DNA from: a virus
DNA: 64,000 nt
IMG/VR virus record: IMGVR_UViG_3300027743_000002
Span: 10,679-74,678 of that record
Reading direction: 5' to 3' (one strand)
Made by a program: the position numbers and the translations under genes. The first letter of the stretch is position 1. Each line of letters opens with the position of its first letter. Shown piece by piece: positions 5,432 to 31,175 of the stretch. The notes below the pieces were generated by a model, which ran no database searches, was not told where the DNA came from, and worked only from the letters and a program-made list of their open reading frames with translations.

Positions 5432-8400
5432 ATGCCGAACACTCCTGATCTCACCGATCTGTTCGACAAGCCCAACCCACGCACGCGGGTTCATTCCATA
5501 GCGTCTAAAGCAGGACTTCCCCCCGACATTGCCGACGATTACCTACGACTCACCAAGATTGAATCGGGACATAACACTAACGTCCGCGATTCCAGCAAAG
5601 GAGCGCAGGGCTTTGGTCAGGTAATGCCTGACGTGAAGGGCGGCACGACGCGCACGGTTGGCGGGAAACGCTATAACTTGCGGAATGCAGATGAAAACAT
5701 CGAAGCAGGAATTCGCTATTTCGCAGAAGGGGGCAATGACCCCGTAGCGCGACGATTACATTACTTCGGTGGCCCAAAAGCGAAACAGCGTTACGAGCGC
5801 ACGGGCAAGATGCCTAACATCTCTGATGGCAATATGACCGCCGCACAGTATGTGAAAGCAACGGGCGGAAATCAGAAACCGCAGTCGGCATCTCCTGATT
5901 TATCGGACTTGTTCGACAAACCTTCGGGACAGACCCAACCTGCCACGTCAAAGCAAAACCGTGTCAACAACCTACCCCCAACTCCAGCTACAACCCCCGT
6001 TAGTTCACGGCAACAGTCTGTCCCTAAGCAACCAATTCAGCGACGTGGGCCAACGAATCCGTTTGACTTCCAACGTCCCGCGCCAAGATTGGAAGTCGGA
6101 GCAAAAGTAGGCGGCCCACAAGCGTCTCAGGGTGTAGGTGATCTACGCCGCCAAGATGAGCGAGACTTAGCCCGTATGAGCCGTATTCGAGGCCAAGTGA
6201 CTTCAGAGCAGACGGACGCGGAGCAACAGATGGGTCGTGCTCCAAACACTGCTCAAGCGCGTCTATTTGACCCGAAACTGAATGTTGATGAAGAAGTGCT
6301 GAAACGCATCAGTCAAGAGCAAGACACTGAGAAGGCCCAAGCAGACGCGCAAGCCGAACAGCAAAGACTCATTGGACAGTTCACCGATGCAGATCGCGCA
6401 GAAATAGCCGACTTCACGAATCACCTTCAAGGCAAAGGGGGAGTCTATTCAGGAATCCGTGCAGGTATTCGACGTGGTGGTTCATCTGCTCTCTACAAAC
6501 TCGCTGGACTTGCGGAAATTGGGAATCAAGTAGCCAAGAGAACAGTTGGAGAGTCGTGGATACCTGACTATTTGCGGAAGAAGGCTCTCGCGGGAGAGTT
6601 GTCAGTCAACGACATTCCTGAAGACAAACGGAATCAGCTCGCGGAGTTTCTAGCGCAATCAGGAGTGGGGTTAGCCGAACTCGCAGCAGCTCCAGGTTCG
6701 ATTACCACGAAGTTTGCAGGTATGGCGGGAAGCGAAGCGTTGGGTCGAAATCTTCCTGCTAAAGAAGTCGCCCGTGAGACCGCTAAAGGCGCGGCGATGG
6801 GGGCGGTACAGAAGTACGGCGAAGGACTCGCGCCTGCAAGCGCAGGACGATTCAAACGTGCAGCGGTGAGTGCTCCTGCGGTTGGGATCGGAAGTGGTGC
6901 AGTTGAGTTAGCAACGGGAGCTACGCCACGAGAAGCAGCTTTGAGCGCGGTGACGAACGCGGCCTTTCAAGGGGGTGGTGAGATGTTACGCCGAACCCCG
7001 CAAAGGAGATTAAGTGAAGCAGAAGCAGCACCCAAGCAAGAGGTTAATGTCCCTGAGCGTCCAGAAACGATTGCGGCGCAACTAGCAGCCGTACAGCAAG
7101 GCACTAGACCCGCAGTCTTGGTGACGAGAGGTGAGAAACAACCCAACACTCCTAGGGGAATGAGCGCGGTCAGAACAAGTGAAGGAACCTTCTATTACGA
7201 TCCGAAGCAGGTTAGTCGGGAAACCTTACTTGCCAAAGTGAAGGATGGGACTTACGGCGAAGTTCTCGGACACATAGAACCTAAATCAGCAGCGACTACA
7301 GAAGCAGTTGTAGCGCGTGCTGCTGATGGAACTGAAGTACAAGCCTCAGCGGTGTCACCTGAGAACGTAGCGAAGCAAGCTGAAGTGTTACAAGCGCAGC
7401 ATCCTGAAGCCACGATTGAAACGGGTGGTAATGAATTAGCGCAGAAGGTCATTCAGGATCGGGTTGCACCTGAAGTAAGAGGCTTTGATGATGTTCCTTT
7501 AACTGAGCGAGAAAGAGCGGAACTCGACACTTATTTTGATGTGGAATCGAGAATTCCTGAAAGTGAGAGAGTACCACCTAAGCCCGCAAAGATAGACATT
7601 CTGGGAGAGACTGAAGTAGCCCCGAAACCTCTTGCGCGCCGAGAATTATTGGAACTTACGGACGCAGAGTTGGATGTTCGTGAGTCGCCTGTGCCGAAAG
7701 GAATGACACGTTTGTATCGTGGCGGCGTAGAAGGGAATTGGTTTTCGTCGGAGCGTGATACGGCGCGATTTCACTTGGATAATGCGACGGGGCGCAAACC
7801 AACGCTGCGTTATGTGGATGTACCAACTGCTGATTTAGCGAAATACGACGCCTTTGAACATCCCCGCGTAGTATCGGGCCGCGAACAAGCGGAAGCGGGT
7901 GATTACATTTTACCAAAAGAACTAACCGCGCAAGCACGAGACTTGGCGACTGAGACAGCACCTACAGAAGTAGCACCTATTGAGCCAGTAGTAGCTAAAC
8001 CTAAAACTCCAGTTACGGAAACACCTGTTACACCAGAGACACCAAGAGCAGCAACGGAACCACGAGAACCATCCACAACTTCTGCTCGTAAAGCGCAGAT
8101 GGCCCAAGATCGCGCCGAATTAGATTTGCCCGAACTTGACCCAACAGAACGAAAGACTTGGCGCACAACGCTCGACAACGCAAAAGAGCGTGGACTAGAT
8201 AAGCGCGGCGACATGCTGGCCGATGAGGTCTTAAAGAAGCGTCGTGCCCTTGACGATGAAGAAACCGCAGGCGTGGTACTCCGCACGCAAGAACTCAAGA
8301 ACCAACACAACCAACTCCTCAAAGAGATAGCCGAAAGCAAGGATGAAGTAGACATACTTCGTAAAGGCGCAGAGTTGAAACTAATTGAAGATCGCTTTGA

Positions 8401-12740: not shown

Positions 12741-14813
12741 ATGAGCCTAGACCCCATAATTCTCGGCGCGGCACCCTACCATCCAACAAGTCCGCGCAGT
12801 GGTGTGTCAGGACGAACGCTGCTCAGGATGCAAAATCTCATTCTCAGTGGCGCAGACGAGAATATCTACCTGCAAGTCTATAAAGGCTCCCTCGACTTAG
12901 AAGAAACAATCCCAGGTTTAGACATCACAGGCACCGTCAGTGCTGCTGCGGGTGAGACCACCATTGAAGGTGTAGGGACTCTTTTCACTACCGAACTCCA
13001 AACCGGACAAGGTTTTTGGGCTGGTGATAGTCCCTTAGTAGTCAATCGAGTGATTGACGATACTCACCTGACAGTGTGGGTTGGGCCACTAACAACTCTG
13101 GCAGGCGCGACTGCTACCCGAATGCCCGTGCTGTTCACGGTGAACACGCAGCGGGGCACTCTCAGTGCTCGTGGTAACGCCTTAGAATCCGACTCAGGAA
13201 CTATCTTCGCAACGGGTGTGGGAACGCTTTTAATTGACGGACAGCCCTTACAAGGCTCGTCAATGGTGCTCACAGGGAGTCCCGCAGTAGCAATCTTCGA
13301 CCCCACCACAGGAAACTATGCAGTCTATCCGGTAGGCTTTGATGTGCCAACTCCCGCTCCTGTTTTGGGTGATGTGATTGGCGGCGAGCAAGGCATGGTA
13401 GCGGGTGATTACAGCGTTCGCTTGACTGCGGCAAGTTCAATCACTGAAGGAGAAAGTAATCCTGGGGTGAGGGCGAATGTCAGTCTCTCATCGGATGGCG
13501 ATCAAATTGAGGTAGACATTTCGGGAGTTACCTTCGACACGGCAGCAGGGGTAGATCAAGTTAATGCCTACGCGACTCAGTTGAATGTCGTGAACGTCAA
13601 TCAAGGCCCGTGGAACTTTGTGCTGAGTCACTTATTAGCCGATGGTAATACCTTTAACCTTGATTACTTGAACGCCGCTATTGCCCGACAGGGAGAACTT
13701 GAGTTTGATAACGACGCGCCTCCTGATGCGGGCTTTGTGGCTACACTTCAGAGTTACATCCAATGGGTAAGTTGCTATGGCAAGTGGGGTGGGCCTCCTG
13801 GCCCCGTATTAGTTCCTGCGAAGCCAAACAACATCGAAGCGGCTCCTGCTAATTGGGTAGTTACCTCATCGCCTCCCGATACAATTCTTGATGTAGTGAC
13901 TTCTCAAGCAAGACTCTATTTCCCTTGCCACAATTCTCTACAACAAGGTGTGTACGCGCCAACAGGTGATCCATTAGTTCCGCCAACTCAGATTCGCGCC
14001 TTCTGGAGTTTAGGGTTCTCTAGTTTTCAGCAGTTGGTATTTGCCCAAGATTTGTTAGTGGGTTATTCGCATGGTGGGCCAACTCGTTCATCGGCCAATG
14101 TGGAGATTGTCAACACTCAGTTTCTTGGTGCCCAAGTCGCGGAAATTATTCAGAATTGGGAGAGTGCATACGTTAAGGTGGGTTGGGACTCTGACCCGAT
14201 GGTCAATGCCATTTGTTTCTTCCAACCTGCCATTAGACAGAACGACGATGGTTGGTGGGAAACGGATGTTTTGATATGGGGGCTAAATTCTGTGGATTGG
14301 ATTGGGGCTGTAACTCTTACCGATCCAGATCGGGACATGGTTGTTTGCAGCGTGTCTAACGTGAATAACGTGCTCACGTTTCTAGCAGGCGGTAGAGTTG
14401 ATGATGTTGGAACCCTTCGGTTTGATACCTTTGAGTGGAATAAGATTTCAGGAGAAGAAGTGCCATATTATGCCGCTTGGCAACTCAATGCTTGCGGATT
14501 ATTAGATCAAAATAAAACCATTCGAGCAGCGAGGGCGAGCGGCAAGTTTACGAATGGATCGTTAGACCTATACGGTTTTGATAGTGAAACTCCCGTGGAT
14601 TTAAGCATTATAGAGGACGGAACTAATGCTCAAGTATCCATCAATTTAGGAACCACTACCGACGTAGAAACTACGATACGCGCCCGCGTGAATGCGCCTA
14701 GTAACTTCATGGTGACAGCTAGGATTTCCGGAACTTACAACGGTACGGATGAAATAGTTGACCGCATCGGGGGTTGTGTATTAGAGGTCATGCCCCAAGG
14801 CCCGCGCCGTTAA
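12741..14813 (+). CDS. putative tail nozzle/stabilisation protein (P22 gp10/T7 gp12-like)
   Basis: 690 aa, acidic and beta-rich, follows the adaptor-like genes. Confidence 0.55.
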   Translation: MSLDPIILGAAPYHPTSPRSGVSGRTLLRMQNLILSGADENIYLQVYKGSLDLEETIPGLDITGTVSAAAGETTIEGVGTLFTTELQTGQGFWAGDSPLVVNRVIDDTHLTVWVGPLTTLAGATATRMPVLFTVNTQRGTLSARGNALESDSGTIFATGVGTLLIDGQPLQGSSMVLTGSPAVAIFDPTTGNYAVYPVGFDVPTPAPVLGDVIGGEQGMVAGDYSVRLTAASSITEGESNPGVRANVSLSSDGDQIEVDISGVTFDTAAGVDQVNAYATQLNVVNVNQGPWNFVLSHLLADGNTFNLDYLNAAIARQGELEFDNDAPPDAGFVATLQSYIQWVSCYGKWGGPPGPVLVPAKPNNIEAAPANWVVTSSPPDTILDVVTSQARLYFPCHNSLQQGVYAPTGDPLVPPTQIRAFWSLGFSSFQQLVFAQDLLVGYSHGGPTRSSANVEIVNTQFLGAQVAEIIQNWESAYVKVGWDSDPMVNAICFFQPAIRQNDDGWWETDVLIWGLNSVDWIGAVTLTDPDRDMVVCSVSNVNNVLTFLAGGRVDDVGTLRFDTFEWNKISGEEVPYYAAWQLNACGLLDQNKTIRAARASGKFTNGSLDLYGFDSETPVDLSIIEDGTNAQVSINLGTTTDVETTIRARVNAPSNFMVTARISGTYNGTDEIVDRIGGCVLEVMPQGPRR

Positions 14814-15323
14814 TTTTCTTTGATGGTATGCACGTCGAGCATTAGCGTTGATTATTTCACGACGTTCAGTTTCACTTTGTTTAATACAGATGAGACATTG
14901 GCGCATTCCGCGTCGCACTTGTAGATTTCTGCCGCTTAAAGGATGTCCCCTTTTGCAGTGAGTTTTACGAGCATTTTTCGCAGCCGCACCACTACCACGC
15001 AATACATTGATGCGCGTTGACGTAAATTCTAAATGGAGAGGATTGCAGCACGCTCGGCGGCGACACAGATGATCTATTCCATTTGTATTGGCAGGTTGTC
15101 CTTTAGGAATTGCGTGTACAAGCCATGCGAACATAAGTCGATGTACACGTTGTTGATAGCCGTACCATCCCGTAACTCCGTATCCATCGGGGTCACGAGC
15201 CGCGCACCAAATCCAACATGGGGTGTCATCCCAAAGCAAGTCTGGATGGATTGTAATTTTAGAAAAGAGCCGAATTAACTCTTTGGTGGAAAGATGATTA
15301 ACAGTAAGATACTCGACAGGCAT
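14781..15323 (-). CDS. HNH homing endonuclease
   Basis: CWIW...DGYG...HRL...IDHLCRRRACCNPLHL...N core and C-terminal KTHCKRGH...CLIC Zn domain; antisense to the virion operon. Confidence 0.9.
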   Translation of the reverse strand: MPVEYLTVNHLSTKELIRLFSKITIHPDLLWDDTPCWIWCAARDPDGYGVTGWYGYQQRVHRLMFAWLVHAIPKGQPANTNGIDHLCRRRACCNPLHLEFTSTRINVLRGSGAAAKNARKTHCKRGHPLSGRNLQVRRGMRQCLICIKQSETERREIINANARRAYHQRKLTARALGHDL

Positions 15324-15859: not shown

Positions 15860-16189
15860 ATGGTAGGTAACTGGAATCCTTCAATAACTAGGGGCGGTGG
15901 TTGGACGCGCACACTGACGTTCACTCAATCAGGAGCCGTTTTTAGTCTCGTGGACTACGAAGCTGAGATGACCCTAACCCCTGGGACGGGCACGACAGTT
16001 ACGCTCTCGACCGACAACGGGAAACTCACGATTAACGGAGCAGCGGGAACCTTAACGACTGAACTCACTGCTGCTGAAGTTGCTGCTATTGATTGGTCGC
16101 AGGGCGTAGTGCAATCAGTCTTGACCGTCATTTCCCCTGAAGATACAGGTGAAGCAATCGAACTAACTGGAATCGCCAACCTTGTCTGA
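15860..16189 (+). CDS. small beta-sandwich fibre-adaptor-like protein
   Basis: 109 aa, Thr-rich beta pattern (TLSTDNGKLTINGAAGTLTTELTAAE). Confidence 0.55.
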   Translation: MVGNWNPSITRGGGWTRTLTFTQSGAVFSLVDYEAEMTLTPGTGTTVTLSTDNGKLTINGAAGTLTTELTAAEVAAIDWSQGVVQSVLTVISPEDTGEAIELTGIANLV

Positions 16190-16709
16190 ACTTCGCGTCA
16201 CCGTCAACGAGCCTATCGTCAAAGTTACCACTACTGGTGACGAAGTAAATGTACGCATTAACGAAGAACCCATTCGAGTTTTTGAAGGCGTAGTTGGACT
16301 CTCCGGTTACTCCGGTTACTCTGGCGCATCTCCTGGGGTCAGCGGGTTTAGTGGTTATTCCGGCAAGTCGGGATTCTCTGCTTATTCAGGCTACAGTGGA
16401 ACGTCGGGGGCACCTGGGGGTGATTCAGGTTATTCAGGCTATTCGGGCAGGTCGGGGTTTTCAGGTAGGTCAGGCTTCTCAGGTGAAGGGTTTTCTGGTT
16501 ATAGTGGCAAGTCGGGTTTTACAGGCATTTCCGGTTTCTCTGGATACAGTGGGCGCAGTGCATTTTCAGGCTACTCAGGAGCCAACCCTGGAGCGTCAGG
16601 TTTCAGCGGTTATTCCGGTACAACTGCTGGTTTTACTGGCACATTCACGGTAAATGGTGGGGCAAATACCGCCAACGTCACCAATGGTTTAATCACAAGT
16701 GTTACTTAA
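16182..16709 (+). CDS. (Gly-X-Ser)n repeat protein 1
   Basis: About 115 aa of SGYSG/SGFSG repeats between short beta-rich ends. Confidence 0.85.
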   Translation: MSELRVTVNEPIVKVTTTGDEVNVRINEEPIRVFEGVVGLSGYSGYSGASPGVSGFSGYSGKSGFSAYSGYSGTSGAPGGDSGYSGYSGRSGFSGRSGFSGEGFSGYSGKSGFTGISGFSGYSGRSAFSGYSGANPGASGFSGYSGTTAGFTGTFTVNGGANTANVTNGLITSVT

Positions 16710-16745: not shown

Positions 16746-18116
16746 ATGCCGATTTCTTCTCGCTCCCCCAATCGCGTTACCGTCACCGAAGACTATGCCG
16801 TTAAATACACGGATGATTACGTCACTTTTCAGATAGCCGCCGATAAAACGGCTTCTTTACCTCACGCCTCACAATGTCAGTTAGGTTACTTCCAGAAAAT
16901 CATTATCAATCAATTTGGGCTGAGTAGTTCAGTCGCCATAGTTCCGCAAGATGGTGACACGTTTGAAGGGGTGAGTTCACTCACTTCTGGTCAATGCGTG
17001 ACCTTAACTAGCGATGGTATATCGAAGTGGTCAAGCGTGTTGGGTCTTTATATCGGAACGACGATGGTGGGCATTTCTGGCTTCTCTGGCCCACAAGGAA
17101 TGAGTGGTTGGAGTGGTTATTCCGGCGCGTCAGGCGCAGGCGGTACGGGGCCAGCGGGCGTCTCAGGCTACTCCGGTTTTAGTGGTGGAGGGGTCAGCGG
17201 CTTTAGTGGATTCTCTGGCGCGGGAAGCAGTGGGTTTTCAGGCTACAGCGGCACATCGGGGTTCTCTGGATATTCTGGAAGGTCAGGATTTAGTGGTACG
17301 AATGGTTCCAATGGAGTGAGTGGTTTCAGCGGCTATTCAGCAGTTGGTACATCGGGATTTTCGGGCTTCTCAGGTAGTGCAGGTAGCACGGGGAACACGG
17401 GGACTTCTGGATTCAGTGGATACTCAGGATATTCTGGCTTCTCTGGCTTGAACGGTTCAACGGGACAAACTGGATCGGCAGGCACGAGCGGTTTCAGCGG
17501 GTATAGTGGCAATAACGGCGCAGCAGGAGCAGGAGGCGCATCGGGCTTCAGTGGTTACAGCGCAGTCGGTTCATCTGGTTTTAGCGGTTATAGCGGACTA
17601 CCAAGCGCAAGTGGCTTTAGCGGTTATTCGGGGGTGAGCGGATTTTCCGGTTACAGCGGAATCAGCGGAGTCAATGGCACATCGCCTGCTTATGCTCGCG
17701 TGACGGTGGCAGATGCAACCACAACGGGCCAAGCGTTAGTAGACATTGCGGGGCTTTCCATTGCGTTGTCTGCGAATGCGGTTTATGAGTATCAAGCCGT
17801 GCTTTCAGTGCTCACATCTGCTGTTACTACGGGTGTGCAATATGGAGTAAACTACAGTGTCGCAGGTGGCGCGGTTGAAGGACAACTTATTGGATCATCG
17901 ACTGCCACAGCGACTAAATCAGAGCGAGTGAGCGCGTTGAATACCGCATCAGGGACTTATCTAACGACTTCGGGGCAAAATGGTCAAGTGTTGATGAAAG
18001 GGATCGTGACCACGGGAGTCAATGCGGGGAATTTGACCATCAAGCATTTGAAAGTTTCGAGCGGAACCGCAACTTGTAGAATCAATTCATTCTTAAAGGT
18101 GACAAGAATCAGTTAA
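16746..18116 (+). CDS. (Gly-X-Ser)n repeat fibre protein 2
   Basis: N-terminal SLP...GDT..G...SDG..W module, about 200 aa of SGFSGYSG repeats, C-terminal beta-sandwich-like tip. Confidence 0.85.
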   Translation: MPISSRSPNRVTVTEDYAVKYTDDYVTFQIAADKTASLPHASQCQLGYFQKIIINQFGLSSSVAIVPQDGDTFEGVSSLTSGQCVTLTSDGISKWSSVLGLYIGTTMVGISGFSGPQGMSGWSGYSGASGAGGTGPAGVSGYSGFSGGGVSGFSGFSGAGSSGFSGYSGTSGFSGYSGRSGFSGTNGSNGVSGFSGYSAVGTSGFSGFSGSAGSTGNTGTSGFSGYSGYSGFSGLNGSTGQTGSAGTSGFSGYSGNNGAAGAGGASGFSGYSAVGSSGFSGYSGLPSASGFSGYSGVSGFSGYSGISGVNGTSPAYARVTVADATTTGQALVDIAGLSIALSANAVYEYQAVLSVLTSAVTTGVQYGVNYSVAGGAVEGQLIGSSTATATKSERVSALNTASGTYLTTSGQNGQVLMKGIVTTGVNAGNLTIKHLKVSSGTATCRINSFLKVTRIS

Positions 18117-18119
18117 TTT

Positions 18120-21100
18120 ATGAAGCCACGTTACAGTATTGTTATTCCGACGCACAAACACCTCACCGACGCGCTTATTCCCTGCCTCCAAAGTATCCAA
18201 AAATACACTGACCTTTCTGACTGTGAAATTCTTGTCGTGGCAAATGGTTGTGGCAACGACTTCACGCGAGAGTACGTGCAGACGCTAGGCGCACCCTTCA
18301 AACTCATCTGGATAGATGAACAAGCAGGCTATACAAAATCCGTGAATGCGGGCATCAGAGCCGCGCAAGGCGAGTTCGTCTTACTGCTCAACAATGACTG
18401 TCAGATACTTGAAAGTCCTCGCGGTGAGTGGTTGGAAACTTTGGTTGCTCCGATGGCTGACCCGCAAATAGGGATGGTCGGGATTCACGAACTTTGGAGC
18501 GCAGAAATCAACAGCAACTTCATCGTGTTTTATTGTGCGCTCATTCGTCGCTCAGTGTTTGATGTTGTCGGTTTACCTGATGAACTGTTCAGCCCTGGTT
18601 TCGGTGAGGACATAGACTTCTGTGCGCGGCTGATGAGAGCAGGATACAAATACGCTAATGTTGATCCAACTGCTAACCAAGCAGGAGAGTTGTGTATCGG
18701 TACTTTTCCTTTGTATCACGCGGGCGGCAAGACCTTTCACGACTCAGCGCATGACGCGGGTTACAAAATAATAGTGGAGCGCAACTTGAAGATTCTGCGC
18801 AATCGGTATCAGCCCGTGAAGTTGTTGGCTGTCTTAGTCAACTTTGGAGTTGAAGGTTTATCGCACTTATATCAGACCATCGACAGTCTCAAGAGTTTCG
18901 ATTCTCGTTATACAGTGGACATTGTTGTCCATTCCAACGTGGCTGTTGGCAGAGACGACATCCGAGAGATTATTCACGCGGAAGCCCCGTGGGGTGATTG
19001 GCTCAACTTGCCGTGGAAGTGTCGGGAAACACTTCACCAAGAACGCGAGAACTACGACCTCTATCTTTATGCCGAACATGACCATCTTTTCACGCAAAGA
19101 AACATAGATGCGTTTCTGGAAATAACACCCTTTCTGTCGGATGCTGAGATTGCGGGATTTATCGAGTGGGAACATTCCCCTCAAGGGCGATTTTACCCCG
19201 CATGGCACGCTGATTATGGATGGGGTGAATCATTCACGAACGATGCAGGGACATTCGCCAAGTTCACTAATCTACATCAAGGCAGTTTCTTAGCTACCCG
19301 TAGGCAATTAGCACGGGCTATCGCGGTTGGTAAAGAAGCGTTTCTTGACCCACAGCGACGTTTGTTTTCGAGTCCGTATGGCATTCGTGAACGGTGTAAC
19401 ACCGACTTTTACGATACAGGCTTCAAGAAGGTTATTCCGGTTTCGCGGTTTGAGGACTTTCTGATTCACCATCTGAGCGATCATTACTACGGTGTGTACG
19501 GTACGAAGTGCGATTCAGAGATGAACAAGGCGTTGGCGGAACTAATTGAGCGTCCCGAAGTCTCCATCATCATTCCTACCTACAATCATTGTGACGATCT
19601 ACTCCGTCCGTGTCTGGAAAGTCTGCGGGTTAATACTGACTTGACGCAGACAGAAATCTTAGTGATTTCAAATGGCTGTACCGATGGAACGGATGCTTAC
19701 GTTAAATCGCTGGGCCATCCCTTTAAACTGATTAGCCACAGAGCACAACTCGGATTTACGAAAGCAACGAACATCGGGTTACGCGCAGCTCGTGGAAAGT
19801 ATCTTGTCTTACTCAACAACGACACCATCATTCAAGGAAGTGATTGGATTGACTTGATGAAGGCTCCATTCCTTGATCGGAAAGGCGTCGGCATGAGCGG
19901 GCCTATGCGCTTCGTGGGAGAACCTGACAAGTCCAACGACTTCGTAATGATGTTCTGTTGTTGCACGACAAGGGCAGTTGTGGATGACATTGGCCTCCTT
20001 GATGAGCGATTCGCCCCTGGTGGTGTCGAAGACGTTGACTACGGACTCCGGCTCTTATTAGCCGGATATGAGTTAGTACAAGTACCGGAAAATCACGCAG
20101 TCGCATTTGAGCCTGATTTGTCTACGGGAGCCTTCCCAATCTTCCACAGTGGCAATGCTACTTATCGAGATGAAGCGGGTTGGCACGCGAACTTGATTCG
20201 CAACAATGGCCGACTCAAAGCTAAGTTCCCTGAATACTTCAAGGGCTTAACGTGGATTGAAGAAATGGCCGTGAGTGAACCGCAGCCACTTGATTTTGCG
20301 GCTCTCCATGAGCAAATGAAAGAAGCAGACAGTTGGCTGCATTGGGAAATGTTTGACGTAGACGTGAATCAGGCCAAGCGAGAAGAATTAGCAGGCAAGA
20401 CCGTCATCGACATTGGGGCCAACAAGGGCTTCTTTGCTATTCACGCGTTGGAGTTGGGAGCCAAAGAAGTTTATTGCTTTGAGCCAGTCCATGAAATCTA
20501 CGAACAGCAGCTTCAACTCGTGGGTGATATTCCGCAAGTTCATTCCTTTAATTTGGCCGTGTTAGATGGTTCGGTGTCAGAAGTCCACATGCACGAAGCA
20601 GGTGTGGTATCGAACATTTGGGGCGACCCAACTACTTCTCCAACTCCGTGCGTTTCGTTGGTCACAGCGTTGAGTCATGTGCCTGACCATTCCAACATGG
20701 TCTTGAAGATTGACTGTGAAGGCTCAGAGTTTGAAATCCTGTTTCATACGCCTGCCAACGTGATTCGGCAATTCTCAACCATCTACGTTGAGATGCACGA
20801 CGAAATGAATCCCAACTTTCAACACAAGACTCCTGAGTTGTTGAGTTATCTACACTCATTGGGATTCACGAGCGAGCAAGGGCCACAAGCATCAACTTGG
20901 TTGGAAGATGGTTCATCCGAAGAATCTCCCGTGCGTATTTACAAGATGAGACGAAGTGAACAACCGCGTGTGACGGTAATCATTCCTACTTATCAACGCT
21001 ATGGACTGTTGCGGGAAGCGTTGAACTCCGTGCAGGCGCAGACTTATCGAAACATCTGTGCGCTCGTAATAGCTGATGGCCCCGATGCGGAAGTAGAACA

Positions 21101-23489
21101 AATCGTGGCTGAGTATCAAGCACAGAGTTCAGATATTACCTACGCCTACGCAGACGTGCCCCACGAAGGATTTATCAGTGCGCGTTCCAAGATGCGCGGG
21201 ATTGACTTGCTACCTCTACATGGTTACGTGTGCTTTCTCGATGATGACAATGTTCTCTTGCCTCAGTATGTCGAGAAGATGGTTGGAGTGCTTGCTGAAG
21301 GGAAAGAAGTGGCGATTGGGCAGATTCTACTCCAGCGCGTCATCGACGGAGAGAATATGGTTAAGACTGCCCCGCCCGATGCAAACTCGTTGGGGTTCTC
21401 AGATATTGATGCGCTGAACATTTTAGTGCAGAACGACATTGCTCGATTGTGTCGGGACGAATGGCACCAAGACAGAGATAAGCCCATCGACCACGACTAC
21501 CGCTTTATTCAGAAGTGCTTGACGCATACGGGCTATGGTTTTGTACCCGAAGTGGTTGCTTTCCATCGGGACATGACTCGCGAGACAGCCAAAGTATTTG
21601 ATTGTTTCCCCTTCTTTAATGAGTTGGACTTGTTGGAAATGAGGCTGAGTGAACTCGACAGCGTAGTGGATTACTTCGTGATTGTAGAAGCAAACCAGAC
21701 CCACAGTGGACAGCCGAAACCGTTGTACTTAGCAGAGAACATGGAGCGGTTCAAGAAGTGGGAAAAGAAGATTGTGATTCAGGTAGTTGACCTGAGCACG
21801 ATAGAGTTTGCCAACTTTGACTTCGACCCTTGTTGGGTGCGTGAACATCTACAGCGAGATTCAGGGCGTGACGTTGTTAATCGAATGGCTAAAAAGGGAG
21901 ACTTCTGCATCGTCTCGGATGTAGATGAGATTCCCCGCGCTTCAGCGATACAAGAGTACATCGTGAGTGGACAGTACGAAGTTGGAGTGTTAGCCCTTGA
22001 GAGATTTATGTACTTTTTGAACTATCGGAATGTGACCACCGATGAGCCACAGTTGAATGCCAAGATTACTCCTTGCGATAAGTTGCAAACTTACAATCTG
22101 AATGACATTCGCTTTGCCGATAAAGAGAACGTGTTACCAACTCGTCGCATTGAATCGGCGGGATGGCATTTTACAATGATGGGCGGATTAGAGAAGGTCA
22201 TTGAAAAGGTGAAAGCGTTCGCACATCAGGAATATGCTGCGCCCGACAAGATAGACCACGAGCGCATGGAGAAGTTGTTTCGTGAAGGCAAGGATGTGTA
22301 CTCAGCGAACACGACTTGGGAGACAGTTGAGATTGACGAAACATTTCCGCAGTACGTGAGAGAACACGAAGATGAGTTGCGGGCAAAGGGTTGGATTAAA
22401 CCGCAGGAGACGGGAACGGTCATCAAGTTACAGGATTGGAAGCAATCTCGGTTGACCGTTACCGCCGAAATCTCTACCAAAGACCGTTATCAAACCACTT
22501 TGCCACTAACTATTAGCGCGATAATCAATCAGACTCACAAGCCTGAGAAACTAAAAATCTACGATGATGGTGAACAAGCGAATCTCTTTGAACTTGCACC
22601 CTTCAGTGGTTTATTGCAGATGGCAATGGACAAGGGCATTGAAGTAGAAGTGCTGACCACGCCGCGCAAGGGCCAAGTCACTAATCATCAACATTGCCTT
22701 GAAAGCGCGACTACAGATGTGATTTGGCGTTGCGACGATGACAATATTCCTGAACCTGATTGCCTACACAATCTGCTTGCGGAAATGAAAGAGGGGGTAG
22801 GAGCTGTAGGAGGATTGGTTCATCATCCAGGCGGTATTAGCCCATTACCCAAAGGCGTTGATGGCTCGTTAAATGATTTAGCGATGGGATTAAATATTGC
22901 GTGGTTTGATTGGAACAGCGGCCCCAAAGAGTGCGAACACTTGTACTCGACTTTCGTGTACAGAGTTTCGTCAGCACGAGAGGTTGGTGGCTATCCTCTT
23001 GATTTAAGCCCTTGCGGACACCGTGAGGAAAGCTGGCTCACCCATAAAATCCATCGAGCAGGGTACAAGGTAATTTGTACGCCCTACGCTCGTACCGCTC
23101 ACTTGAGAGAAGCAACGGGCGGCATCCGTACTTATACTGACCCTGCTATGTGGGAGCATGATGAGGGCTTGTTTCAAGCGTATCTACGAGCGATTGGGAA
23201 GGTAAGTCCGAAATCCAAAATGATGATTCTGGACATGGGCTTAGGTGATCATCTTGTGGCAAAGGCCGTGTTATCAGAGATTCGGAAACGCAACAACAAT
23301 CAGCATCTCGTCATGGCGGTTTGTTTCCCAAGTGTGTTTGAAGAAGAACCCAACGTGACGTTGATTTCCATTGCGGACGCTAAGGCAATCGTGGGCCATG
23401 GCTACCAACAACATAGTCTGTATGCTTGGATGTGGGATAATAATTGGGATGCACCGTTGGCTGACGCCATGATAAAATTCTGGGGATGA
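18120..23489 (+). CDS. multidomain glycosyltransferase/methyltransferase (GT2 x4, GT-A-like domain, FkbM-type MTase, GT17-like, GT9 N-half)
   Basis: SIVIPT..LLNND; LYLYAEHDH; SIIIPTYN..LLNNDT; VIDIGANKG..FEP..LKIDCEGSE; VIIPTYQR..FLDDDN; DCFPFFNELDLLEMRL..VSDVDEIP..GWHFT; ISTKDR..RCDDD; C-terminal MGLGDHL. Confidence 0.9.
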   Translation: MKPRYSIVIPTHKHLTDALIPCLQSIQKYTDLSDCEILVVANGCGNDFTREYVQTLGAPFKLIWIDEQAGYTKSVNAGIRAAQGEFVLLLNNDCQILESPRGEWLETLVAPMADPQIGMVGIHELWSAEINSNFIVFYCALIRRSVFDVVGLPDELFSPGFGEDIDFCARLMRAGYKYANVDPTANQAGELCIGTFPLYHAGGKTFHDSAHDAGYKIIVERNLKILRNRYQPVKLLAVLVNFGVEGLSHLYQTIDSLKSFDSRYTVDIVVHSNVAVGRDDIREIIHAEAPWGDWLNLPWKCRETLHQERENYDLYLYAEHDHLFTQRNIDAFLEITPFLSDAEIAGFIEWEHSPQGRFYPAWHADYGWGESFTNDAGTFAKFTNLHQGSFLATRRQLARAIAVGKEAFLDPQRRLFSSPYGIRERCNTDFYDTGFKKVIPVSRFEDFLIHHLSDHYYGVYGTKCDSEMNKALAELIERPEVSIIIPTYNHCDDLLRPCLESLRVNTDLTQTEILVISNGCTDGTDAYVKSLGHPFKLISHRAQLGFTKATNIGLRAARGKYLVLLNNDTIIQGSDWIDLMKAPFLDRKGVGMSGPMRFVGEPDKSNDFVMMFCCCTTRAVVDDIGLLDERFAPGGVEDVDYGLRLLLAGYELVQVPENHAVAFEPDLSTGAFPIFHSGNATYRDEAGWHANLIRNNGRLKAKFPEYFKGLTWIEEMAVSEPQPLDFAALHEQMKEADSWLHWEMFDVDVNQAKREELAGKTVIDIGANKGFFAIHALELGAKEVYCFEPVHEIYEQQLQLVGDIPQVHSFNLAVLDGSVSEVHMHEAGVVSNIWGDPTTSPTPCVSLVTALSHVPDHSNMVLKIDCEGSEFEILFHTPANVIRQFSTIYVEMHDEMNPNFQHKTPELLSYLHSLGFTSEQGPQASTWLEDGSSEESPVRIYKMRRSEQPRVTVIIPTYQRYGLLREALNSVQAQTYRNICALVIADGPDAEVEQIVAEYQAQSSDITYAYADVPHEGFISARSKMRGIDLLPLHGYVCFLDDDNVLLPQYVEKMVGVLAEGKEVAIGQILLQRVIDGENMVKTAPPDANSLGFSDIDALNILVQNDIARLCRDEWHQDRDKPIDHDYRFIQKCLTHTGYGFVPEVVAFHRDMTRETAKVFDCFPFFNELDLLEMRLSELDSVVDYFVIVEANQTHSGQPKPLYLAENMERFKKWEKKIVIQVVDLSTIEFANFDFDPCWVREHLQRDSGRDVVNRMAKKGDFCIVSDVDEIPRASAIQEYIVSGQYEVGVLALERFMYFLNYRNVTTDEPQLNAKITPCDKLQTYNLNDIRFADKENVLPTRRIESAGWHFTMMGGLEKVIEKVKAFAHQEYAAPDKIDHERMEKLFREGKDVYSANTTWETVEIDETFPQYVREHEDELRAKGWIKPQETGTVIKLQDWKQSRLTVTAEISTKDRYQTTLPLTISAIINQTHKPEKLKIYDDGEQANLFELAPFSGLLQMAMDKGIEVEVLTTPRKGQVTNHQHCLESATTDVIWRCDDDNIPEPDCLHNLLAEMKEGVGAVGGLVHHPGGISPLPKGVDGSLNDLAMGLNIAWFDWNSGPKECEHLYSTFVYRVSSAREVGGYPLDLSPCGHREESWLTHKIHRAGYKVICTPYARTAHLREATGGIRTYTDPAMWEHDEGLFQAYLRAIGKVSPKSKMMILDMGLGDHLVAKAVLSEIRKRNNNQHLVMAVCFPSVFEEEPNVTLISIADAKAIVGHGYQQHSLYAWMWDNNWDAPLADAMIKFWG

Positions 23490-24295
23490 AAGTCGCCAAA
23501 TTGATAGGAATTTACTGTTTCCGCAATAACGTAACAAATAAAGTTTATGTGGGAAGCTCTATAGATATTTCCTACCGCAAGCGCAAGCATCTAGAAACAC
23601 TTCGCGCTAATCGACACCGTAATCAATTTTTCCAACGTGCATTTATTAAGTATGGGGAAATTGCGTTTTCATTCTCAGTCCTTGAGACGTGTTTACGGGA
23701 AGAATTGCAATTGCGGGAAGATTATTGGATCGTCACGCTGAACTCTCTAAATAAAAAATATGGCTACAACTTGGTTAGTGCAGATCGCAGGGAAATATCA
23801 CCGTCTACCAAAAGAAAAATCAGTGCAGGGCAAAAACGGAGTTATGAGAATGGGCGTATCCCGTTCAACAAAGGCAGACTGTTTTCTGAAGAACATAAAG
23901 CCAATATTAAGCGCGGAATAAGACGAACATTTGAAGGTGGTCGTATTTCTGCATTTAAGGGGAAACACGTAGCAGAAGCTACGAAGGTAAAGTTCGCATG
24001 GGCATATACGGGACAAAAGGTATCTCTAGAAACCCGTCTCAAGATGTCAGAGTCGTCCAAGGGAAACAAGGCATCCTTGGGCCATAAGCAGAGCGCAGCC
24101 AGAGTTGAGCATCGTGCGTGGTTGAACCAAAAGCCTGTTGTGCAATTTCGTAAAGACGGAGTGCTATTGGGTTATTACTGCTCTATTCAACATGCTGCCA
24201 AAATGCATGGTATGTCTCCAACAACGGTATCTAAGCGTGTACATGGTCATCGAGCAACGGCAGGTGGCTTTGTGTGGAGATTTAGCGGTCAATGA
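23486..24295 (+). CDS. GIY-YIG homing endonuclease with NUMOD-type DNA-binding repeats
   Basis: GIYCFRN..KVYVGSS..R..H..E..GYN; repeats such as SEEHKANI and SLETRLKMS; C-terminal KPVVQF..TAGGFVWRF. Confidence 0.9.
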   Translation: MKVAKLIGIYCFRNNVTNKVYVGSSIDISYRKRKHLETLRANRHRNQFFQRAFIKYGEIAFSFSVLETCLREELQLREDYWIVTLNSLNKKYGYNLVSADRREISPSTKRKISAGQKRSYENGRIPFNKGRLFSEEHKANIKRGIRRTFEGGRISAFKGKHVAEATKVKFAWAYTGQKVSLETRLKMSESSKGNKASLGHKQSAARVEHRAWLNQKPVVQFRKDGVLLGYYCSIQHAAKMHGMSPTTVSKRVHGHRATAGGFVWRFSGQ

Positions 24296-24777
24296 GAATT
24301 TTAATTTCGCCGTACGCCGCAAGGCTTCCAAGCGGCAATCGCAATCCAAAGAATTTTCCGTATTGGGCTGAGTTGGTCAAGATGCTCAACGCCAATGGTC
24401 ATCACGTTATTCAAATCGGCGTCAAAGGGGAAGCCCGCATAGACGGGGTAGCAGAATTTCTTCAAGACATACCGTTAAAGGATTTGGTGAATGTTATTAA
24501 CGGTATTGATGTGTGGTGTTCTGTAGACAGTTTCCTTCCCCATTTCTGCGCGACTAATCATCTCAAATCAGGCGTCGTAATTTGGTCGCAGGCTTCGCCC
24601 AAAATATGGGGCTACCCACACAATACAAATCTCTTAAAGGATGAGAAATTTTTGCGAGAGTTTCAGTACGCACCGTGGTGGGACGCGGAATACAACGAAG
24701 ATGCTTTTGTTGAACCTCAAGTAGTAATGGATGCACTGCATGGCCGACTCTTTAATAATGCGCCCGCTAAATCCTGA
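24292..24777 (+). CDS. GT9 (heptosyltransferase-like) C-terminal half
   Basis: ILISPY..KNFPYWAEL..VIQIG..LKDLVNVI..VDSFLPH..VVIW..PKIWGY. Confidence 0.75.
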   Translation: MRILISPYAARLPSGNRNPKNFPYWAELVKMLNANGHHVIQIGVKGEARIDGVAEFLQDIPLKDLVNVINGIDVWCSVDSFLPHFCATNHLKSGVVIWSQASPKIWGYPHNTNLLKDEKFLREFQYAPWWDAEYNEDAFVEPQVVMDALHGRLFNNAPAKS

Positions 24778-25222
24778 AACCGAACAAGACCTATTTCGGC
24801 TTTCATATTCGTGGCGGATGAAACAGAAGCGACACACTCAAGGTGAGCGCATGGCCTTTGAGGAGTTTTCCGCCAACGATCCGACACAGATAGTGCTTGG
24901 ACTGTTCAACGGTGAACTACAAGCGGTCTACTTGATTAAGGAGTGGGCACCTGCGCACTATGAAACTCATTTTACCTCAAGCAAAAATGCGCCACGAGAG
25001 AACGTGGTAGCGGGAGCAAGGAAGATTTTGACGTGGTTAATGGAGAATGGGGCAGAGGAAGTAAGTGCTTTTGTTAGGCCAAGAAATAAGCCAGTGTGTC
25101 GTTTCGTCGAGGAAGTGGGTTTTAAGCGTGAGAGTTTGTGTCTTTTTGGTAGACAAGAAGATTTAGATACATGTAGTATGCCCAACAAGTTTGTGAAGTA
25201 TGTTTGTCAAAGAGGCAACTAG
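24740..25222 (+). CDS. GNAT-fold acetyltransferase-like virion assembly protein (P22 gp14/T7 gp13 position)
   Basis: C-terminal SAFVRPRNKPVCRFVEEVGFKRE GNAT motif; precedes a pilot-like protein. Confidence 0.65.
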   Translation: MADSLIMRPLNPETEQDLFRLSYSWRMKQKRHTQGERMAFEEFSANDPTQIVLGLFNGELQAVYLIKEWAPAHYETHFTSSKNAPRENVVAGARKILTWLMENGAEEVSAFVRPRNKPVCRFVEEVGFKRESLCLFGRQEDLDTCSMPNKFVKYVCQRGN

Positions 25223-25765: not shown

Positions 25766-26287
25766 ATGTCACCACCAATTAACAGCGCATACGCCAAGCA
25801 GCAATTCAAGACTGATAGCTACACGATCACCGTATCCGACGATATTATACGGTTCACACTTGCGGCTCCTGGTACTGCTACGTTGCCCTTTTCTCGCAAC
25901 TGCTCGATAGTATCAGGGCAGAACCAAAAGATTATTGCTAACGGTGATTCAGGTGGTAATGACCTGACAATCGCTGTGGGCGCAGGCGACACGCTCGTTG
26001 GGGAAACAACCTTGAGCGCGGGTGAGACAGCCTTTATTACTGGCGATGGAGTCTTGATCTGGAATTCCATTGGCGCATCGGGCGTCACGGGCAATTCTGG
26101 TTTCTCAGGGTACTCGGCGTTTTCGGGGTACTCAGGTAAGAGTGGATTTAGTGGTATCTCTGGATTCTCTGGCTTCAGCGGCATCAGTGGCGCGAGCGGC
26201 AAGAGCGGATTCAGCGGTTACACCGGAATCTCTGGATTCAGCGGTTACTCAGGCACTAGCGGTAGGTCAGGCTATTCCAAAGCCTAA
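25766..26287 (+). CDS. (Gly-X-Ser)n repeat protein 3
   Basis: N-terminal TLP module plus 23 C-terminal G-x-S/T triplets (one G replaced by A). Confidence 0.85.
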   Translation: MSPPINSAYAKQQFKTDSYTITVSDDIIRFTLAAPGTATLPFSRNCSIVSGQNQKIIANGDSGGNDLTIAVGAGDTLVGETTLSAGETAFITGDGVLIWNSIGASGVTGNSGFSGYSAFSGYSGKSGFSGISGFSGFSGISGASGKSGFSGYTGISGFSGYSGTSGRSGYSKA

Positions 26288-26305: not shown

Positions 26306-26824
26306 ATGGCTCCACCAATTAATTCGATATACGCAAAGTATGTCACCAAGACAGATAACTATACGCTCACCTTCTCGGATGATGTGGCGACTTTTACCAT
26401 TGCGACCGCAAAGACCGCCACGTTGCCGAAAGCGGGAACGTGTACGGTGATGTCGGGGCAGAACCAGAAGCAGATTATTAACTCTGCAAACTCCAGCGAC
26501 ACGCTCACGATAGCAGTGCAGAGCGGGGATACGTTGGTGGGTATCGGCTCACTGGCGGTAGGTCAGGAAACCATTGTTACGTCCAACGGCACGACTACAT
26601 GGACAGGCTTTGGCGGCGGTGGTGCAGCAGGCACATCGGGCTATTCAGGGCCAAGTGGATTCAGCGGCTACAGTGGGCCTTCTGGTTACAGTGGCTACAC
26701 AGGAGTCAGCGGCTTCTCCGGTTACACGGGAGTCAGCGGATTCTCTGGCTACAGTGGAGCGAGCGGATTTAGTGGCTACTCTGGATACTCTGGCAAGTCT
26801 GGATTCTCTGGATTCAGTGCGTAG
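26306..26824 (+). CDS. (Gly-X-Ser)n repeat protein 4, paralog of 25766
   Basis: Shared PPINS.YAK..KTD.YT..SDD..SGQNQK.I..GDTLVG; 22 uninterrupted G-x-x triplets at the C-terminus. Confidence 0.85.
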   Translation: MAPPINSIYAKYVTKTDNYTLTFSDDVATFTIATAKTATLPKAGTCTVMSGQNQKQIINSANSSDTLTIAVQSGDTLVGIGSLAVGQETIVTSNGTTTWTGFGGGGAAGTSGYSGPSGFSGYSGPSGYSGYTGVSGFSGYTGVSGFSGYSGASGFSGYSGYSGKSGFSGFSA

Positions 26825-30051: not shown

Positions 30052-30074
30052 GAATGACTCGGAGAATAACTGAA

Positions 30075-31175
30075 ATGAAAAAGTTCTTAGTGTTACTATT
30101 TGCGATCCTTACGAGCGTTTCCGCAAGTGCCCAAACGTCTGGTATCAACGCTAAACGTATTTTCTCCGGTACAGCAGTGCCAACGATGAACTGCTCACCT
30201 GGGCCGTCCTATCGAGATGTGTATATTCGTACCACCACAAATGTTGTGTATCAATGTACGGCCGCACCTGCTACGTGGACTGCGGTAACAACAGGTGGCT
30301 CTCCAGGTACAGTCACGAGTGTTACAGGTACGGCGAATCAGATTGACGTGGCTACCGGAACGACCACGCCTGTCTTGTCGCTGCCTTCTGCGGTAACGAT
30401 GCCTGGCACGCTGACGATGACAGGTCAGATTTTTAGCGGAGACGGAACTAATACTGCCCCTACTTTTGCCAATTCAGTACGAACAAATTCAGGTCTTAGA
30501 ATTTCCACTTACTATCCGGTGCTCACCGTCAATGGCACGGACATAATGGGTATTTCCAACTCAGCCGGAGCAATTCTAAAAAGCGACCAACCGTTTGGGT
30601 GGTCAGACGTTGGTGGCGCATTAGCAGGGGGCGCAGCGGACACTAGAATAAGTAGAAACGCCGCAGGCATCGTGCAAGTTGGCACGACTGCCAACAACGC
30701 TTCTGGTTCTCTACTAGCTACTAACGCAACCTTTAGTGGGACGCTTACTAACTCAGGAATTGCGTCTGACGCGGCAACTACTAACAACACAGTCTGCACG
30801 ACCACAACCACGAATGTCTTTACGAAGGGCAGTGGAACTGCGGGTATTTGCCTCGGCACGTCAGGAGCTAAATTCAAGCAGAACATGTTGCCACTGAACA
30901 TGGGACTGAATCAGGTCATGGACTTACGCCCGATTAGCTACAACTACAAGTCGGGGTACGGTTACGATCCGAATAAGACCTACTATGGCTTCACTGCTGA
31001 ATCAGTTGCTCCCGTGATTCCCAACCTTGCCCCTAAAGACGTGAATGGCGCACCGCAGAGCGTTGACCTTGTGGGCATGATTCCCGTTTTGGTTCACGCA
31101 ATTCAAGAACAACAAGCACAGATTACAGTCTTAAAACAGCAAGTAGAAACCTTAAAGCACAAACGTAAGCATTGA
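30075..31175 (+). CDS. signal-peptide fibre protein with C-terminal S74-type intramolecular chaperone
   Basis: RBS ggag at 30061; MKKFLVLLFAILTSVSASA-Q; TSGAKFKQN..LRPISYNYK..GFTAE..IPVLVHAIQEQQAQI coiled coil. Confidence 0.8.
   Translation: MKKFLVLLFAILTSVSASAQTSGINAKRIFSGTAVPTMNCSPGPSYRDVYIRTTTNVVYQCTAAPATWTAVTTGGSPGTVTSVTGTANQIDVATGTTTPVLSLPSAVTMPGTLTMTGQIFSGDGTNTAPTFANSVRTNSGLRISTYYPVLTVNGTDIMGISNSAGAILKSDQPFGWSDVGGALAGGAADTRISRNAAGIVQVGTTANNASGSLLATNATFSGTLTNSGIASDAATTNNTVCTTTTTNVFTKGSGTAGICLGTSGAKFKQNMLPLNMGLNQVMDLRPISYNYKSGYGYDPNKTYYGFTAESVAPVIPNLAPKDVNGAPQSVDLVGMIPVLVHAIQEQQAQITVLKQQVETLKHKRKH

Follow-up and report, generated by a model that had tools for sequence, protein, structure and literature searches.

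A giant modular glycosyltransferase and a split GT2-GT9 core cassette associated with Gly-X-Ser fibre genes in environmental phages

Introduction

To our knowledge, virus-encoded glycosylation of a virus's own structural proteins is established only in chloroviruses, mimiviruses and some mycobacteriophages, and the most complex characterised enzyme of such systems has three transferase domains. Here we analyse a stretch of 64,000 nucleotides (nt), called the window, which covers bases 10679-74678 of the virus record IMGVR_UViG_3300027743_000002, a complete genome of 74,678 bp with direct terminal repeats. Inside its tail-fibre gene block lies an open reading frame (ORF) for a protein of 1789 amino acids (aa), composed of glycosyltransferase (GT), methyltransferase and other modules that we number D1 to D8. 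The last two form, with the separate downstream protein D9, a core cassette that recurs in many phages and is found together with proline-free Gly-X-Ser/Thr repeat proteins.

A064R of chlorovirus PBCV-1 contains two GT domains and an S-adenosylmethionine (SAM) methyltransferase, which build and methylate the glycan of a capsid protein; its three domains act in the order in which they are encoded (PMC9614988). It resembles the present case, as we propose it, in being a virus-encoded soluble polypeptide of GT and methyltransferase domains that decorates the virus's own structural protein from host nucleotide sugars (PMC9614988). It is among the few known proteins with as many as three transferase domains (PMC9614988), whereas the window's protein has at least six assignable ones and a split seventh; and it acts on the N-linked glycan of a eukaryotic-virus capsid protein (PMC9614988). 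Its orphan middle GT domain followed by a methyltransferase (PMC9614988) mirrors, compared by description only, the proteins in which a D2 domain is joined to a methyltransferase. In mimivirus, L230 is a viral GT that modifies a viral collagen-like protein: it hydroxylates lysine and adds a single glucose (PMC9614988). The repeats described here differ in having serine at position Y and an aromatic residue at X; they show neither a Pro nor a Lys pattern, and a hydroxylase is absent.

GTs of mycobacteriophages of the Che8/Corndog type glycosylate virion proteins, as cited in a passage of PMC12619734. The window differs from them in that its enzyme is a single giant modular protein, its core is split between GT2 and GT9 parts, and its fibres are of the Gly-X-Ser repeat kind. 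The mycobacteriophage enzymes are reportedly encoded by separate small genes and act on the C-terminal tails of capsid and tail-tube proteins.

Outside viruses, TibC hyperglycosylates the serines of a repetitive adhesin (PMC4358343). TibC and AAH are GT9-like protein Ser-O-heptosyltransferases, and D9 superposes on the C-lobe of TibC (Z 15.2). In TibC a single chain includes the full N-lobe, the chains form an iron-binding dodecameric ring, and the donor is ADP-heptose; here, in contrast, the donor lobe is a separate protein of 161 aa, and only 92 aa appended to a GT2 domain make up the putative N-lobe. GT-B enzymes of the Alg13/Alg14 type likewise have their donor-binding and acceptor-side lobes encoded as separate polypeptides. 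They are GT1-like, whereas the enzyme described here is GT9-like and would have its putative N-side piece fused to another complete glycosyltransferase. In none of A064R, L230, the mycobacteriophage GTs and TibC is a giant modular enzyme combined with a split GT2-GT9 core and with Gly-X-Ser fibres, and our literature searches returned no description of such a system.

Results

Searching viral contigs with the single D7-D8 sequence gave near-identical contigs only; a profile was needed to reach 237 stretches, and 80 loci were fetched. D9 is present in 75 of them, mostly starting 0-40 nt past the D7-D8 ORF, and both partners are conserved at 35-60% identity over many phages. There are at least 299 D7-D8 homologues, 191-611 aa long; many stand alone, are ~345 aa in length and span 97-99% of the query. 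Two loci, L052 and L055, carry natural in-frame D7-D8-D9 fusions; therefore, D7-D8 and D9 belong together. D9 was never found fused to the giant relatives. In cells the cassette occurs at 10 loci in ~185,000 species genomes, all of them metagenome-assembled genome (MAG) or metagenome-assembly records from scattered phyla. By these counts, D7-D8 and D9 are a conserved, almost virus-only cassette that is usually encoded by two adjacent ORFs. In a complete, repeat-bearing phage of 160 kb (G017:C1:113521-114488), the D7 match is separated from the D8 match by ~140 nt and sits in another open frame, which may be a further split or a frameshift.

The DDD motif of D7 (D1539-D1541) is invariant. AlphaFold2 (AF2) models D7-D8 as a GT-A fold with a predicted local distance difference test score (pLDDT) of 94.9, and its best Foldseek matches are polypeptide N-acetylgalactosamine transferases (GalNAc-Ts), a likeness that is suggestive only in pointing to a protein-directed precedent. 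The confident model of D8 shows a small beta-alpha-beta unit. Its G-x-G-D-H loop (G1707, G1709, D1710, H1711) is invariant, and we take it to be reminiscent of the catalytic-Asp loop in GT9 N-lobes. A previous, sequence-only reading of this DNA had called D8 the N-half of a GT9 enzyme; it has no sequence match to one, and a D8-only profile found nothing in the PDB.

D9, on the other side of the split, is clearly the donor-binding lobe of a GT9-type GT-B enzyme. In the model of the L052 fusion, its part (pLDDT ~97) matches WaaF (1psw; Z 15.9, root-mean-square deviation 2.8, 142 aa aligned), WaaC (2h1f, Z 15.3), TibC (4rap, Z 15.2) and a further GT9 structure (3tov, Z 13.8); TibC, a Ser-heptosyltransferase, adds a second protein-directed precedent. 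The D9 family profile matches WaaC with an E-value of 8e-5, aligning the conserved Lys, S-V-D and S-D-P positions. Against the Pfam GT9 model (PF01075) D9 scores 19.6 bits, under the 22-bit cut-off, and D8 has no match. D9 is 40% identical to gp26 of the cultured phage P19250A.

Four proline-free Gly-X-Ser proteins, with X mostly Phe or Tyr, flank the GT island on both sides (Table 1), and all match collagen-like or tail-fibre families. PF01391 scores of the neighbouring repeat proteins are 75.5 and 41.1 bits (cut-off 27.2), with Pro ~0, Y mostly Ser and X mostly aromatic, whereas X and Y of collagen are typically rich in Pro; the fibre protein at 16746-18116 has 54 G-X-Y triplets, 38 of them with Ser at Y, and its X is mostly Phe or Tyr.

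The same kind of protein recurs beside the cassette elsewhere. An ORF with at least 12 G-X-Y triplets is present in 38 of the 80 cassette loci; in all 38, Y is Ser or Thr in 69-100% of triplets and Pro is ~0, and single repeat ORFs reach 551 triplets. By a separate criterion (at least 10 G-X-[S/T] triplets, in 42 non-redundant loci having at least 3 kb downstream), 23 loci have a repeat ORF, and in 14 of the 42 it starts no more than 1.5 kb after D9 on the same strand. Fifteen cassette records have no repeat ORF in the flank; six of them have repeats elsewhere (12-491 pattern matches, against 0 in the reversed-pattern control), including all three of the 15 that are at least 90% complete. In P19250A, the bare cassette (gp25/gp26) lies just downstream of a repeat protein of 1203 aa.

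Starting from the repeats instead, a pattern search at DNA level for four triplets of the Gly-[Phe/Tyr]-Ser type yielded 80 viral loci, 72 of which have verified repeat ORFs. D7 and D9 occur together within short flanks in 21 of these 72, against a background of about 237 cassettes for 2.9 million contigs; a GT or methyltransferase module of any kind was found at 21 repeat loci, with D7 and D9 in all 21. In one complete record that is positive for the repeats, a divergent D7-D8 match lies at another place. Across the contigs compared, the cassette and proline-free (Gly-X-Ser/Thr)n proteins are thus associated in both directions.

The repeat proteins themselves vary in build. Those at 25766 and 26306 are without a C-terminal globular domain, unusual for trimeric fibres; the former shares a ~100-aa N-terminal domain with the 16746 fibre protein, and the latter is similar by eye. 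In P19250A the repeat protein is gp23 (KX815270; L001:1744-5352), where 225 of 281 Gly-X-Y triplets have Ser at Y; its annotation as "tail length tape-measure protein" is probably wrong. Contigs of giant-virus MAGs (L095, L097, L105, L109, L132, L171 and L173) carry Gly-X-Ser/Thr repeat ORFs too, with no D7-D8/D9 cassette within the fetched stretch.

We scanned the 1789-aa protein segment by segment with Pfam and NCBIfam, judging matches against curated cut-offs, and computed motif conservation over 20-212 homologous segments per module. The sequence-only reading had described a multi-domain sugar-transfer protein, and this holds: there are five GT-A domains and an FkbM methyltransferase, with motifs intact and conserved family-wide. 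Six of its eight domain calls stand (GT2 four times, GT17 and FkbM), and those of D2 as a GT-A-like domain with EHD and of D8 as above are not confirmed. Rather than having lost their catalytic residues, all assignable domains keep their motifs, and in each the expected catalytic positions rank among the best conserved columns. No convincing membrane segment was detected in the protein (top 19-residue Kyte-Doolittle window, KD19, 1.64, within the D1 core).

The acidic DxD-type motifs of the GT2 domains are kept in D1, D3, D5 and D7 and at least 85% conserved in the family. D1 and D3 are paralogues, as had been noticed earlier (41% identity, E 2e-56), and share the motifs N-x-D and E-D-x-D: residues N91, D93, E163, D164, D166 and H200 of D1 are conserved in at least 85% of 212 family segments, and D568, D638, D640 and H676 of D3 are conserved as well. 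So are the DDD motif of D5 (D1041-D1043), whose nearest named models, PglI and AglG, both score far under their cut-offs, and, in the methyltransferase D4, the SAM loop D764-x-G766-x-N768-x-G770, E788 and D865/E867/G868/E870. In the GT17 domain D6, D1267-V-D1269-E1270 and W1349/H1350 are conserved across 109 segments; a solved relative was not found by sequence. The activity that marks the GT17 family is beta-1,4-GlcNAc transfer to a mannose acceptor.

D2 is of another kind. It has no Pfam, NCBIfam or PDB match, Pfam is also empty for 28 members of its family, and hhalign gives it a probability of 0.1 against the GT-A profile of D7-D8; no link to glycosyltransferases emerged from any of these comparisons. 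Its family (representatives collected at E<=1e-3) comprises standalone proteins of ~250 aa, GT fusions, and proteins of ~470-495 aa from bacteria and viruses in which D2 is N-terminal and the remaining half is a class I SAM methyltransferase. Structural neighbours are limited to its own family and to these D2-methyltransferase fusions, and its ESM Atlas clusters are mostly viral, Nucleocytoviricota among them; the names of the clusters gave no clue to a function. As judged from its members, D2 is a genuine, conserved and mostly viral family.

The number of modules had been called unusual. We know of no characterised enzyme that comes close to it, but at least 213 metagenomic proteins, 983-3131 aa long, are built of the same kinds of modules. 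Collinear relatives include one protein of 1793 aa with 94% identity and five of ~50% identity with one additional GT2; the viral contig L003 (72.5 kb, ~90% nucleotide identity) has the same domain order. We therefore reject an assembly chimera, since collinear ORFs of the same order lie on independent contigs. Giant relatives duplicate and reorder modules; D7-D8, where present, is always the C-terminal unit, and so module order is not free at that end. The sequence-only reading had suggested that domain order may set the glycan sequence, for which A064R offers a precedent. Genomic contexts of giant homologues were examined only where homologues also occurred in viral contigs, and no isolated phage near-identical to the genome was found by megablast. 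Relatives of 2400-3000 aa (P0008, P0009, P0010-P0015) have up to ~10 modules; GT17 is present in several copies, and FkbM-like methyltransferase modules follow one another in tandem, three or four at a time.

At the boundary between D8 and D9, the window carries a homing endonuclease gene of the GIY-YIG type, whose NUMOD-like matches are under cut-off. Its start overlaps the stop of the giant ORF, and its stop the start of D9, each in an ATGA. In L003 a single base stands in place of the 801-bp insert (window 23486-24286), and the endonuclease ORF terminates in the glycosyltransferase's original last two codons and stop. Since these codons, the stop and the ATGA overlap are reused, translational coupling is kept. 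In P19250A, too, gp25 (D7-D8) and gp26 (D9) are adjacent, overlapping ORFs with nothing between them; because both P19250A and L003 have adjacent ORFs without the insert, the two-ORF arrangement is older than the endonuclease. As the contig alignments read, the gene did not split the enzyme: it inserted exactly at an existing gene boundary. We considered a group I intron or an intein and hold both to be improbable, as there is no Rfam match (E<=1), the endonuclease is an ORF of its own that fills the insert, and the two-ORF state exists without it. The seg and mob GIY-YIG genes of T4-like phages are likewise intergenic, intron-less and polymorphic in presence between close relatives; here, in distinction, the gene sits where a split enzyme passes from one of its ORFs to the other, and the last codons of the upstream ORF are reused.

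The D8|D9 boundary is a recurrent insertion site across phages. Unrelated GIY-YIG genes occupy it in L017:1558-2367 and L019:5832-6641 (30% identity to the window's endonuclease) and in L086:10461-11042, unrelated meaning such an identity or no detectable similarity; other ORFs, of 223-662 aa, do so in L033:11017-11685, L036:2820-3722 and L064:10975-12960.

Table 1 Features of the glycosyltransferase island and its flanks (window coordinates).
Feature	Position	Strand	Details
Gly-X-Ser repeat protein, candidate substrate	16182..16709	+	Collagen/tail-fibre matches
Gly-X-Ser repeat fibre protein, candidate substrate	16746..18116	+	456 aa; globular N- and C-terminal parts; PF01391 75 bits; tail-fibre PHROGs
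Giant multi-module glycosyltransferase/methyltransferase ORF (P0001)	18120..23489	+	1789 aa; ATG start; 4x GT2, GT17, FkbM by Pfam
D1, GT2 domain (GT-A)	18120..18812	+	aa 1-231; PF00535 60 bits (cut-off 23.3)
D2, conserved domain	18813..19547	+	aa 232-476; family of 410 representatives
D3, GT2 domain (GT-A)	19548..20279	+	aa 477-720; PF00535 71 bits (cut-off 23.3)
D4, FkbM-family SAM methyltransferase	20280..20957	+	aa 721-946; PF05050 46 bits (cut-off 22.7); TIGR01444 70 bits (cut-off 37.7)
D5, GT2 domain (GT-A)	20958..21581	+	aa 947-1154; PF00535 68 bits (cut-off 23.3)
D6, GT17 domain	21582..22439	+	aa 1155-1440; PF04724 105 bits (cut-off 26)
D7, GT2 domain, first part of core cassette	22440..23210	+	aa 1441-1697; PF00535 48 bits (cut-off 23.3)
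D8, small Rossmann-like domain	23211..23486	+	aa 1698-1789 (92 aa); always C-terminal to D7
Free-standing GIY-YIG/NUMOD homing endonuclease gene	23486..24295	+	PF01541 34.2 bits (cut-off 22.6)
D9, separate protein, GT9-type GT-B donor-binding C-lobe	24292..24777	+	161 aa; structure and profile matches
Possible GNAT acyltransferase (weak assignment)	24731..25222	+	PHROG 4470 E 2e-4; Pfam GNAT E 0.04, under cut-off
Small Gly-X-Ser repeat protein, candidate substrate	25766..26287	+	Tail-fibre PHROGs; ends in repeat
Small Gly-X-Ser repeat protein, candidate substrate	26306..26824	+	Tail-fibre PHROGs; 23 triplets, 19 with Ser at Y; ends in repeat

Discussion

Because the core module is tightly linked to Gly-X-Ser fibre proteins, the most likely task of the giant protein is to put a coat of methylated glycan on the fibres of the phage itself. 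We lean, by a modest degree, towards a cytoplasmic O-glycosylation line for Gly-X-Ser virion fibres. Such a line would be soluble, made late in infection alongside the tail-fibre genes, and would O-glycosylate the serines of proline-free (Gly-X-Ser)n fibre proteins. D7-D8 and D9 would recognise the repeat protein and add the first sugar or sugars to Ser; D1, D3, D5 and D6, perhaps with D2, would extend the chain using host nucleotide sugars; and D4 would methylate a sugar hydroxyl, possibly as a cap. Shuffling of modules between phages could then diversify the glycan.

We put forward only tentatively a wider scheme, in which a virus-specific split GT2-GT9 enzyme of many environmental phages primes Ser O-glycosylation on (Gly-aromatic-Ser)n fibres of up to hundreds of triplets, giant GT2/GT17/methyltransferase shufflers write lineage-specific methylated glycans, and the products are mucin-like, bottle-brush virion fibres.

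Several points weigh against fibre glycosylation. The substrate is assigned from gene neighbourhood and co-occurrence, and the system is known here from its genes alone. Adjacency overstates functional linkage, since phage structural modules keep synteny by descent, and the cassette-to-repeat counts stand without a random viral-locus set for the background of Gly-X-Ser ORFs. Nine cassette records have no repeat at all; as all are fragments (7-77% complete), they are uninformative rather than supportive. The GalNAc-T matches of D7 (E ~1e-10, template modelling score, TM, ~0.5) are weak evidence for a protein acceptor, because all GT-A folds resemble one another. In the AF2 model of the L052 fusion, residues 233-364, the region where D8 and D9 would pack, have pLDDT <50, although D7 and D9 are well modelled. 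D2 was linked to no known fold or family by any search. Finally, GT9 and FkbM domains are classically enzymes of lipopolysaccharide (LPS) and polysaccharide synthesis.

The late structural setting would fit other virion proteins equally well. The enzyme might glycosylate the capsid or tail tube, or lay down a non-covalent polysaccharide coat, the repeat proteins being mere neighbouring fibre genes. Precedents exist: in mycobacteriophages the C-termini of capsid and tail-tube proteins are reportedly glycosylated (Freeman 2023, as cited in a passage of PMC12619734), and giant viruses coat their fibrils with polysaccharide (PMC9614988). This leaves unexplained the specific bidirectional link between D7-D8/D9 and the repeats, seen in loci that are only 35-55% identical, among them that of the minimal phage P19250A, which has only the cassette and one giant repeat protein. 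We regard such targets as unlikely.

The domain repertoire raises another possibility: during infection the enzyme might build or remodel a polysaccharide of the host surface, whether LPS O-antigen, LPS core or capsule, for instance to mask receptors. It would then be akin to the ABC-transporter-dependent O-antigen pathways with their multi-domain polymerases and methyl-capping terminators. LPS and polysaccharide loci typically encode GT2, GT9 and FkbM domains, D9 matches LPS heptosyltransferases, and the nearest named GT2 models (EpsD, PglI, AglG and NodC) belong to polysaccharide or lipid-linked pathways, all scoring far under cut-offs. The gene, however, is placed in the fibre block and not in an early or lysogeny region, and its product has no membrane segment. 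The complete genome lacks an initiating phosphoglycosyl transferase (PF02397, PF00953), a flippase (PF01943) and a nucleoside-diphosphate (NDP)-sugar epimerase (PF01370), and no GT2 domain was found in it outside the giant ORF. The missing lipid-linked-route genes argue against a self-contained surface-polysaccharide route, which host enzymes could still complement. As the core cassette is also near-absent from cellular genomes and tracks Gly-X-Ser proteins both ways, we find a surface-polysaccharide role quite unlikely.

Could some of the modules simply be dead, and D8 and D9 be the remains of a disrupted gene instead of two subunits of a functional enzyme? An ordinary GT9 N-lobe is far larger than D8 and does not match it in sequence, and D9 stays under the Pfam GT9 cut-off. 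Decay is nevertheless very improbable, given that catalytic motifs are among the best conserved columns of every module, that the split form with its tight gene overlap is the rule (75 of 80 loci), and that both halves are conserved at 35-60% identity over many phages. Sugar hypermodification of the phage DNA against restriction, for which DNA-glycosylating phage GTs are a well-known precedent (cited in a passage of PMC12619734), can be practically dismissed, for the genome has no gene of the thymidylate-synthase/hydroxymethylase family, the location is a fibre module, and GT17, FkbM and the repeat-protein link would have no place in it.

Glycosylation of the Gly-X-Ser fibres would have consequences beyond this genome. 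The data suggest that the system is widespread among phages: it is represented in hundreds of viral contigs and in P19250A, a cultured phage. Its core is conserved, its candidate substrate has potential sites that number from dozens to hundreds, and its enzymes have up to ~10 modules. If true, this would change the interpretation of fibre and receptor-binding structures in environmental phages, give glyco-engineering a natural library of modular glycosyltransferases to draw on, and offer a testable case for module order in one polypeptide encoding the sequence of a glycan.

Additional features of the window

Homologues of the possible GNAT acyltransferase downstream of D9 were found in the closest relatives only, and for a neighbouring protein of 872 aa a search of 50,697 phage records gave no relative. 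A second homing-endonuclease-like ORF (14781-15323, minus strand) lies just upstream of the fibre block and shows weak His-Me/HNH matches under cut-off. The ORF at 5432-11128 (1898 aa) is probably an ejection or internal virion protein; it has a marginal N-terminal SLT transglycosylase match of 21.8 bits (cut-off 21.3). Further downstream, the fibre protein at 30054-31175 carries a Peptidase_S74 intramolecular chaperone domain.

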